IMG/VR virus record: IMGVR_UViG_3300032325_000464
Coordinates: 1-64,000 of that record
Length of the DNA stretch: 64,000 bases
DNA from: a virus
Strand: one strand, 5' to 3'
Of the stretch, positions 6,333 through 52,743 are shown piece after piece (positions within the stretch are counted from its first letter, which is position 1; each line of letters begins with the position of its first letter). The translations under genes were made by a program, and so were the position numbers. Under the pieces are notes generated by a model. It was given only the letters and a program-made list of their open reading frames with translations, did no database searches and had not been told where the DNA came from.

Positions 6333-6346
6333 AGCCTATTATACCA

Positions 6347-27171: not shown

Positions 27172-27206
27172 AATAACCTCCTAAACTATAATTATAACAG
27201 ATATTG

Positions 27207-50975: not shown

Positions 50976-51259
50976 TAGCTGCCAGCCTCTAGGCTAGTCT
51001 TAAGAATAGCAACAGTCGAACCATTGGTTGCAGAAATTGCGTATAGTGGGCTTGGCCCAGAAAGCTCTACAGACCAGGCTGTCCCTGGTGCAAGGCGGAA
51101 TCCAAAGCTTGAAGATGTTACGCCTTCTCCACCAAGATATACATATGCTGATTCGTGCAGATTCTGTACTGTAATGTCAGTTCCAGTGTGCAAACCATTT
51201 GGGGTAAGTCTGGTTGCTGTTGAGTTACTCAAAGTAACTATTGCATGTGTAGTTGCCAT
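50975..51259 (-). CDS. Small virion protein
   Basis: QN...VYLGG..V...GFRL.PG...LYAI. Confidence 0.6.
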   Translation of the reverse strand: MATTHAIVTLSNSTATRLTPNGLHTGTDITVQNLHESAYVYLGGEGVTSSSFGFRLAPGTAWSVELSGPSPLYAISATNGSTVAILKTSLEAGS

Positions 51260-51345
51260 TATTTATTCACCTTATATATTTTAGACCCAATTTTAATAAC
51301 TGGGGGTAGTGCTAAATTGTTTGTAGTAACCTTAATAACTGGCAT
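51259..51345 (-). CDS. 28-aa peptide MPVIKVTTNNLALPPVIKIGSKIYKVNK
   Basis: TAATG-coupled on both sides. Confidence 0.55.
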   Translation of the reverse strand: MPVIKVTTNNLALPPVIKIGSKIYKVNK

Positions 51346-51737
51346 TATAGACTTCCTCCAGTTACATCACCAATAACAGTAATTGTTCCTAATACTGGTG
51401 TCCAGACAGTATCATCAATGATAATTTCTAGGTCAAAGGCTAGCTCTGCAACTACAGATCCAGATCCAGTACCCCAATTTGCAGTAATGTCAGAGGATGC
51501 TACAATATCTACATATCCTACGCCCTCAATAACCTCTAGTTCGTCAAGTAGGTCTCCTCTGGTATCATATGCAGAAGATGCAAATTCCCAGTCAGATGTG
51601 TCAAAAAAAGTTACCTCATCGTTATCAAGAAACTGGACACGGAGTTTGGCGGTATCGCCTCGGACTATATTCCATTTAATAACAATAGGATTTGATCCAA
51701 AATATTCATCAGGGCAGCAGGTTGCAGAAGTAGTCAT
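51345..51737 (-). CDS. BppU-N-like protein
   Basis: RGDT..FDLEI..TPVLG..DVT. Confidence 0.6.
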   Translation of the reverse strand: MTTSATCCPDEYFGSNPIVIKWNIVRGDTAKLRVQFLDNDEVTFFDTSDWEFASSAYDTRGDLLDELEVIEGVGYVDIVASSDITANWGTGSGSVVAELAFDLEIIIDDTVWTPVLGTITVIGDVTGGSL

Positions 51738-51764
51738 AGTAATATAATTATACATCAATATAAG

Positions 51765-51819
51765 AAAAAACTAGCACCCAAGGAGGTGGGTATGAGAGAC
51801 ATCCCTGGGCGCCAGTCTA
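51765..51819 (-). ncRNA. Candidate ~55-nt hairpin sRNA carrying anti-SD/anti-AUG sequence
   Basis: TGATATAAT promoter (51825-51833), 15-bp stem, loop UGUCUCUCAUACCCACC, U6 tail. Confidence 0.55.
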
Positions 51820-51835
51820 TATAGATTATATCACA

Positions 51836-52040
51836 TTATCCACAGATTTTTTGTAGTTATTCACAGTTTTGTATTAGTTATCCACAGTTTTTTAATAGTT
51901 TTAAAAAATTTACACAATCGTAACAATTGATTTTATATATTTTGTTGCTTTTGGCTTTTTTATGTGTATAATATCTATATATATTAAATAATAAAAGATA
52001 TGTTAACTAGCTTTATAGCTTTATATATTATATATAATAA
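51836..52040. promoter_or_regulatory. oriC-like element: three DnaA boxes, an OmpR-type box and an AT-rich tract
   Basis: TTATCCACA 51836, TTATTCACA 51857, TTATCCACA 51878; TTTACA-N5-GTAACA 51909-51925; very AT-rich to 52040. Confidence 0.65.
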
Positions 52041-52062
52041 TCGGTTTTAAGTTTTCGCAGTT

Positions 52063-52347
52063 TTACTTCTGACGAGATACGTAGTTGATAAACATTTCTG
52101 TTAGATGATCTAGTTTAGAATCTAGCTTTTCGTGATATTCTTCACCTTTTATATTTTGATTCTTTAGACTAACTATATCTCGTTCTAGCCTATTAACCTG
52201 ATCTTTCATTGATGATCCACCGTTAGGCTTTAGCTCTTGAAGCACGTCTTTTAGATAGTGGCGTATCGCCCACCTGACAGAAACACCGATGATTGTTAAA
52301 ATTGATAGGGTTGTAAGGGTTAGGCCTAGCCAGTCTTGAATTGTCAT
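52063..52347 (-). CDS. Single-TM holin-like membrane protein
   Basis: N-terminal TM then ELKPNGGSSMKDQVNRLE, a motif common in actinophage lysis-region proteins. Confidence 0.6.
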   Translation of the reverse strand: MTIQDWLGLTLTTLSILTIIGVSVRWAIRHYLKDVLQELKPNGGSSMKDQVNRLERDIVSLKNQNIKGEEYHEKLDSKLDHLTEMFINYVSRQK

Positions 52348-52524
52348 GATAATACAATTATAAGTGATTTTTTTTATATATAGAATATAAAGTTCGCGGC
52401 TATAAGTTCAAAATTAAAAACGAAAAATTCGGCGGAATAAGAGATACTACACACATATCTACAAGTAATGAATGCAAGCATTCTCTATGTAGACAAGGTG
52501 AGAATTTTATGGTATTATTGCTGT

Positions 52525-52743
52525 ATGGCTTCTGGAGACGATAAGAAAAAAGATGTGGTGTTCTTTGACTTATTTGATCCGAGGCAGCCTAGAAGCGACA
52601 GAGAGCTAATAGAGGCACGTTTAGCAATTTGCAATGAATGTCCCTGGCTAGATAAAAGATTAACAAAATGTCGACAGTGTGGCTGCTTTATGAAACTAAA
52701 GTCTACATTAAAACAGGCCTCGTGCCCTTTAGAGAAATGGTGA
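52525..52743 (+). CDS. Cys-rich DUF6171-like protein (leaderless start MASG)
   Basis: RLAICNEC..CRQCGCFM..CPLEKW; TGGTATTAT 6 nt before ATG. Confidence 0.75.
   Translation: MASGDDKKKDVVFFDLFDPRQPRSDRELIEARLAICNECPWLDKRLTKCRQCGCFMKLKSTLKQASCPLEKW

Follow-up and report, generated by a model that had tools for sequence, protein, structure and literature searches.

A predicted small RNA gene with a conserved, strand-specific hairpin ahead of the tail-fibre genes of an uncultured phage clade

Comparison of a phage locus with its relatives identified what appears, by its sequence conservation, to be a real and new phage small RNA gene, encoded on the minus strand and formed by a conserved hairpin with its own predicted promoter and terminator. 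The gene is located ahead of the tail-fibre genes in this phage and in most of the sampled relatives, and most sampled members of a large uncultured clade of freshwater phages of about 110 kb carry it. The locus lies in a stretch of 64,000 nt (hereafter the window, to which coordinates refer unless stated otherwise) of an IMG/VR virus record of 77,957 bp that is estimated to be 69% complete. Genes in the window point to the minus strand from its left end to about 52,350 and to the plus strand from about 52,470, and the predicted RNA gene sits on the minus strand between a 94-aa gene and a 130-aa gene of the same strand. The features of the locus, in the order of transcription, are:

52063 to 52347, minus strand: upstream gene, 94 aa (phrog_9869), the second syntenic anchor of the RNA.
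51836 to 51886, minus strand: three DnaA-box-like 9-mers (TGTGGATAA, TGTGAATAA, TGTGGATAA) with a 21-bp period, ending 2 nt before P1.
51825 to 51833, minus strand: predicted promoter P1, extended -10 TGATATAAT, 7 nt before the hairpin.
51802 to 51818, minus strand: 5' arm of the hairpin, 17 nt, from the predicted fold and covariation.
51785 to 51801, minus strand: 17-nt loop UGUCUCUCAUACCCACC, with the core AUACCCAC at 51793-51786 and a variable pyrimidine tract as its 5' half.
51768 to 51784, minus strand: 3' arm of the hairpin, holding a lineage-specific CCUCCUU.
51765 to 51770, minus strand: U6 tract (T6 in the DNA), which with the hairpin forms an intrinsic terminator; predicted 3' end of the RNA.
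51747 to 51752, minus strand: P2, the -10 (TATAAT) of the 130-aa gene, whose ATG follows 9 nt on at 51737 (near-leaderless mRNA).
51345 to 51737, minus strand: downstream gene, 130 aa (phrog_1084), with a KWxVVRGDT motif; syntenic anchor of the RNA.

An earlier reading of the letters alone (the preliminary description) had pointed to an extended -10, a hairpin and a U-run on the minus strand, all of which are present at 51833-51765, and the self-terminating transcript of about 55 nt without a protein product that it proposed agrees with our prediction of a small RNA that runs from promoter to terminator and holds no conserved ORF. Since the promoter lies at the foot of the stem and the T-run at its end, the predicted RNA would start at the helix foot and end in the U-tract; the transcript start is predicted at about 51818/51817, and the product should be an RNA of about 52-56 nt, nearly all of it one helix with an open loop. 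The 17-bp stem (-28.2 kcal/mol) followed by U6 has the form of an intrinsic terminator, and a terminator scan also lists the inner part of the hairpin as a terminator. With its own promoter at a fixed short distance and no conserved ORF on either strand, the element is built as an independent RNA gene.

Relatives were collected by three routes. The downstream protein alone led to 12 close loci, and the element is present in all of them (12/12). Use of the loop as a DNA pattern led to 81 loci on contigs of 4 to 125 kb (complete ones are about 110-125 kb), with one copy each. The third route is independent of the RNA: searched with an alignment (A2) of the protein encoded downstream, IMG/VR yields no fewer than 588 relatives of that 130-aa protein, and the best 80 of these were kept, which gave 64 distinct upstream contexts (protein-ascertained below). 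The hairpin is found at the same place in 60 of the 64 contexts and is absent from 4. Altogether, around a hundred contigs of related phages have the element, with a covarying stem, at an unchanged genomic position, which by sequence comparison looks far beyond chance. In three of the four contexts without a hairpin (L351, L353 and L364) P1 and the hairpin are cleanly lost, whereas the T-run, P2 and the downstream gene are retained. Judged from these losses, the RNA appears to be dispensable in a few relatives and not to be needed for the promoter of the next gene, and because some relatives lost it, it would be an accessory function. The three loci (at about 600-700 in each) are also useful natural controls.

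The architecture is shared across the family, which has a stem of 15-20 bp, an open loop of 14-20 nt and a promoter 6-7 nt ahead of the stem foot. TGnTATA(A/C)T is found in 73 out of 79 distinct family contexts (56 of these end 6-7 nt before the first paired base), and 71/79 contexts have at least five T in the 9 nt 3' of the stem. The RNA locus is invariably flanked by the same two genes, with one copy per genome; the 130-aa gene lies downstream in 81/81 loci, and the 94-aa gene upstream in 77/79 loci. P2 is outside the RNA yet invariably 3' of it; from the end of its -10 to the ATG, 26 contexts have 6 nt and 34 have 9 nt.

The minus-strand RNA folds at -28.2 kcal/mol, as compared to -13.3 +/- 2.5 for shuffled sequences (z -6.0; 0/200 shuffles as good), whereas the plus-strand copy folds at only -17.8 kcal/mol (z -2.1). 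In an alignment of 26 sequences, 96.8% of stem cells are in standard pairs and 11/16 stem pairs have changed on both sides in a compensatory way. Covariation scores 0.52 (shuffles: 0.31 +/- 0.02; 0/500 as high), and sliding the partner by 1-3 columns brings stem pairing down to 30-50%. Among 52 distinct protein-ascertained hairpins, there are 655 Watson-Crick, 91 G-U and 4 A-C stem pairs; use of both strands or of the plus strand would equalise the last two numbers, so the selected fold is that of the minus-strand copy. Such strand-specific compensatory base changes are those of a structured RNA family. Wholly different stems are found in three loci (L139, L109 and L312), all of which retain the loop core. 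As far as these comparisons go, selection appears to keep the helix as a structure and the loop as a sequence. Using the hairpin alignment, we built a covariance model (R1), which scores 78 bits on the window copy (E about 1e-18) and finds one copy per genome.

AUACCCAC is found in 60/60 protein-ascertained loops, of which 47 read UCAUACCCAC and 13 read (U/C)UAUACCCAC. A pattern scan that held the 3' half of the loop constant recovered several forms of the 5' half (UGUCUUUCAU, UGUCCUUCAU, AGUC.., CUCUCUCUCAU, CCCCACUCAU and a deletion of 2 nt), whereas the converse scan, with a constant 5' half, turned up no true variant of the 3' half. From the scan variants and the 60 loops, the universal part is AUACCCAC(C) after a pyrimidine tract of 5-9 nt. 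Changes in the 5' half are mostly C/U transitions, with indels and a few other changes as well, and that from CAU to UAU is also such a transition. The complement of the universal part is GUGGGUAU plus purines rather than a GGAGG site of the textbook kind. The single-stranded loop is presumably the conserved, active part of the RNA. Conservation of the loop and covariation across related phages had both been put forward beforehand as checks on the RNA; the invariant core speaks for it, as do the 11 stem pairs with compensatory changes and the score of R1.

With regard to the surroundings, the 130-aa protein has the invariant motifs W..RGDT and WTP..G, and in distant phages (L014-L017) its domain forms the C-terminus of a larger protein whose N-terminus is typical of tail fibres. 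The 94-aa protein, as read from its sequence, has a hydrophobic N-terminal stretch followed by a charged, possibly coiled part, and it gives a weak match to the Gp5.9-like RecBCD inhibitor family. The DnaA-box-like 9-mers upstream of the RNA occur in 9/61 family contexts and are confined to the lineage of the window; other lineages (among L006-L096) have 3-5 repeats of ATAACAAT/GATAAC type in their place, and an extremely AT-rich block of about 100 nt lies farther upstream of the repeats in all lineages. Repeats and AT-rich block may be an origin or a repeat-controlled regulatory region, with binding sites swapped between lineages.

The record has 11 extended -10 sites that lie 5-8 nt ahead of the start codon of an ORF with 40 codons or more (for example, on the minus strand of the window, at 6346, 23245, 24677, 42066, 42701 and 43823), which bears out the remark in the preliminary description that leaderless genes are common here and that others are SD-led. 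The genes at 27199 and 38637 have short leaders with AGGAGG/AGGG-type sites. Since leaderless genes and genes with short SD leaders co-occur, two modes of initiation are mixed within one gene block. Outside the window, five tRNA genes (Arg-TCT, Lys-TTT, Leu-TAA, Ile-TAT and Met-CAT) are found at 74005-75609 of the record (G000) on the minus strand; the related genome G003 has 24 tRNA genes and G001 and G004 have 4-6, so that tRNA load varies widely within the clade.

The nearest isolated relatives of the portal protein (about 47% identity) are those of large Streptomyces siphophages of the Stanwilliamsviridae (such as Coruscant and Tomas); the RNA is absent from the Streptomyces phages Coruscant, Daubenski and Mandalore. 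Promoters with only a -10 and leaderless genes are typical of actinobacteria. One family copy is on a 1.6-kb contig binned into a 1.5-Mb Actinomycetota MAG, and another is in a Lake Mendota MAG. Taken together, the kinship of the portal, the -10-only promoters with leaderless genes and the copies in MAGs make a low-GC freshwater actinobacterium the likely host. WhiB, looked for as a host marker, is not present in the record.

As to what the RNA does, we tentatively favor an RNA that acts in trans and pairs, through its loop, with a site rich in G and purines (5'-GUGGGUAU-3' plus purines), a reading to which we give a little less than an even chance. The predicted RNA would be transcribed from P1 and terminated at the hairpin and U-tract; its loop would act in trans by base-pairing with a single-stranded 5'-(G)GUGGGUAU(G/A)RRR-3', most likely on a host mRNA and possibly in a G-rich ribosome-binding or start region, and the pairing would work without a chaperone, as for the small RNAs of actinobacteria with C-rich loops. 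Base pairing is favored because the changes that the loop tolerates are for the most part C/U transitions, under which pairing to G is retained, because the loop is large and open, and because C-rich loops of the 6C type pair with G-rich ribosome-binding sites in actinobacteria without a chaperone, as described for the mycobacterial 6C sRNA (PMC6486639). There is also precedent in phage small RNAs that retune host mRNAs, such as lambda LPR1/PreS, which pairs with host mRNAs (dnaN) and helps the lytic cycle (bioRxiv 10.1101/2024.10.31.621285). Against base pairing stands that no target was found in the phages or candidate hosts that we searched, and that the invariant 8-10 nt of the loop equally resemble a protein-binding site.

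The search for a partner covered phages and potential hosts. The complement of the 17-nt loop, with up to 3 mismatches, matched only the gene itself in the record and five complete relatives, and duplex-energy scans of four genomes with a filter for homologous position returned only weak coincidences in coding sequences; no conserved complementary site was found in this phage or in three complete relatives. A search with the exact 16-mer in one genome per species (185,579 species) gave 48 scattered matches, two of which are phage-derived RNA copies; eight other matches that we inspected (including a homologous pair in two Caulobacteraceae MAGs) have no hairpin context and look like chance. In a complete 1.5-Mb actinobacterial genome (G048), the best pairing with the rRNA operon is interrupted (-20 kcal/mol), and all 13 of the 13 GGTGGGTRT sites are inside long open frames, none at a clear gene start. 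The 11-mer complement GTGGGTATGAG occurs 22 times in 41 small actinobacterial genomes of the order of G048, as compared to 7 times for the reversed control; the sites fall at a few orthologous positions, never at a gene start, and the excess is probably due to shared ancestry of conserved sequence, not to targets. Since the host is itself deduced, these negative results on host targets carry little weight. A search of 61 small actinobacterial genomes for a copy of the RNA encoded by a host found none.

Some other candidates were set aside. A second copy of UCAUACCCACC in the same sense, at 24654-24644 on the minus strand (codons 4-7 of the leaderless gene 24663-24022), is absent from three complete relatives and was taken as chance. 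Mimicry of a tRNA 3' end or of the (initiator) anticodon arm was rejected as well: no phage tRNA in four genomes ends in ATACCC, TCTCTCATACCCA is found in only 2/301 actinobacterial genomes (one of the two is the phage-derived contig in the MAG), and none of the 38 tRNA/tmRNA genes of G048 matches the loop.

Several other explanations need to be weighed against pairing of the loop in trans. The preliminary description had the element act as an antisense repressor of SD-led mRNAs that presents an anti-SD and an anti-AUG sequence, with the internal scaffold RBS as the closest match that it noticed in the window; we weighed this as a general repressor with that RBS as the likely target. In the lineage of the window, the loop and 3' arm do read ...CAUACCCACCUCCUU, and the scaffold site pairs with them at -22.3 kcal/mol if the 3' arm is counted as free. 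However, CCUCCUU is base-paired within the 3' arm of the stem, at a cost of about 9.6 kcal/mol to open, and is found only in the lineage of the window; most relatives have unrelated letters in its place (..CCAGCC.., ..CCGCCC.., ..CCACUCC.. and others), so the anti-SD is neither accessible nor conserved. The scaffold site CAAGGAGGTAGGTCTTATGA is present as described (29011-28992, minus strand), but pairing of the loop alone with it, at -9.1 kcal/mol, is no better than the background of random 61-nt windows of the same strand (-7.4 +/- 2.9). Of the anti-AUG, it holds that CAU is common, but it is not universal, as 13/60 protein-ascertained loops have UAU. The complementarity to a ribosome-binding site plus start codon is exact in its letters, but AAGGAGGUGGGUAUGAGAGA is nothing other than the element read on its opposite strand; the 20-mer AAGGAGGTGGGTATGAGAGA has a single occurrence in the window, on that opposite strand, and its exact complementarity is therefore uninformative. 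Comparison across the available sequences thus appears largely to refute the general anti-SD reading, and we hold a repressor of this kind to be highly improbable. A 10-codon ORF on the plus strand (MRDIPGRQSI), named beforehand as what might be conserved instead of the RNA, has next to no probability left: it has a perfect AAGGAGGT 4 nt before its ATG in the window, but most relatives have lost this SD, 13/60 have ATA in place of the ATG, and past Met-Arg-Asp the peptide tracks the covarying stem and changes freely, with the excess of G-U over A-C pairs (91 to 4) pointing to selection on the minus-strand fold. That neither this ORF nor its SD is conserved favors the RNA.

An RNA that binds a protein is an unlikely but coherent alternative, in which a very stable hairpin with a paired 5' end would show its pyrimidine tract and AUACCCAC to a conserved protein of host or phage and titrate or recruit it; this protein might be an RNase, a toxin endoribonuclease, a sensor of a defence system, or a factor in translation or transcription. 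An invariant loop on a freely varying stem is a classic form of protein-recognised hairpin, no RNA target was found anywhere we searched, and loss in a few relatives fits an accessory, host-directed function. However, no candidate partner is apparent (the neighbors are a small protein with a hydrophobic N-terminus and a protein with a tail-fibre domain), the loop changes are mostly the C/U transitions expected for pairing with G, and an open loop of 14-20 nt is large by the standard of known protein-operator hairpins. A cis element would fit the position of this canonical intrinsic terminator, which heads a run of structural genes in the same orientation: a terminator or attenuator that would close the upstream unit and gate read-through from P1 into the minus-strand block of about 50 kb, with a factor on the emerging loop deciding between termination and read-through as at a promoter-proximal terminator under antitermination. 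The hairpin is also downstream of the 94-aa gene and can thus end its transcript, and three loci with a weak T-run (L139, L109 and L031) would read through. We find both this gating and a factor that decides it decidedly unlikely, since a separate P2 within about 20 nt serves the next gene as a (near-)leaderless mRNA, natural deletions of P1 and hairpin retain P2 and the gene, P1 would have no purpose beyond feeding a terminator, and with at least 11 genes of the record having an extended -10 and then a start codon 5-8 nt on, long-range antitermination is not obviously needed. Still less probable is a single-stranded-DNA element of the adjacent origin, with a hairpin loop recognised by a primase, an initiator or a nicking enzyme. 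In every lineage the element does adjoin repeats, DnaA-box-like or other, together with a very AT-rich block, DNA hairpins tolerate G-T pairs too, and rolling-circle nick sites can also show an invariant loop on a covarying stem; but the conserved flanks (a promoter at fixed distance and a T-run), needless for a DNA hairpin, argue for RNA rather than single-stranded DNA, no HUH/Rep-type gene is seen nearby, and some relatives dispense with the element.

With regard to known systems, a search of 51000-52600 in Rfam 15 (E up to 10) gave no match on the minus strand of the element; psRNA6 matches weakly on the plus strand (15.3 bits, as compared to a gathering score of 60) and touches the first few bases of the element. 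Among isolated phages, the locus has no blastn match (50,697 phage records), and neither the loop sequence nor its complement was found in any paper in a literature search. Within the known kind of phage-encoded small RNAs, this one is thus a new family. A close likeness is to the 6C sRNA (B11; Mycobacterium, Streptomyces, Corynebacterium; RF01066), also a small RNA in an actinobacterial setting with a C-rich loop, and we propose the same mode of action as for the 6C loops, which need neither Hfq nor ProQ to pair with single-stranded, G-rich RBS regions (PMC6486639). Unlike 6C, which has several hairpins and loops with runs of at least 6 C (L3 = UCCUCCCCCCCU), the RNA described here is a single hairpin with a mixed C/U loop that ends in AUACCCACC (9 C in the 17-nt loop, no run of more than 3), so that it is not of the 6C type. 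It is moreover phage-encoded, has no Rfam match and was not found in the 61 small actinobacterial genomes.

Lambda OOP, which adjoins the origin region, and LPR1/PreS are likewise short transcripts of a phage that have a promoter of their own and end at an intrinsic terminator (both predicted here), but they share no sequence or structural similarity with this RNA. OOP is cis-antisense to cII, whereas no conserved gene lies on the opposite strand here; that strand has only the non-conserved 10-codon frame, so the OOP/sar type of cis-antisense RNA does not apply. The lambda RNAs work with Hfq in E. coli, whereas the host here is probably an actinobacterium and thus Hfq-less, as actinobacteria lack Hfq. 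The lambdoid PR'-tR' region, with its '6S' RNA and Q antitermination, has a similar layout of promoter, short terminated RNA and long structural block on the same strand, and its promoter is constitutive. Unlike at PR'-tR', a second promoter follows at once here, the conserved part is the loop and not promoter-near DNA, and natural deletions leave the promoter of the downstream gene intact. RNA anti-CRISPRs (solitary repeat units) and phage decoy RNAs are also small self-contained phage RNA genes and act on host machinery by mimicry or titration; the RNA anti-CRISPRs, however, copy both the stem and the sequence of the CRISPR repeat, whereas here the stem varies and the loop alone is fixed.

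Very few phage-encoded regulatory RNAs are known to us outside the coliphages and their prophages, and to our knowledge none has been characterised in phages of actinobacteria; the results of our literature search on phage RNAs do not concern phages of actinobacteria. Comparison supports the present family unusually cleanly: the helix covaries and is specific to one strand, the 8-nt core of the loop is invariant, promoter and terminator are fixed in place, and synteny is strict. The family also offers a defined covariance model and, with 55 nt and a single loop, a simple object for tests. We suggest as a bolder and rather doubtful possibility that an abundant, nuclease-resistant hairpin serves as a counter-measure or take-over device of the phage, of a kind undescribed for actinobacterial phages, in which the AUACCCAC loop would silence one conserved host mRNA or titrate a conserved RNA-binding protein or defence nuclease. 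An RNA of 55 nt lets one ask how a lytic phage uses RNA against an Hfq-less host, and its target, if found, would be of further help in identifying the host that this clade infects.
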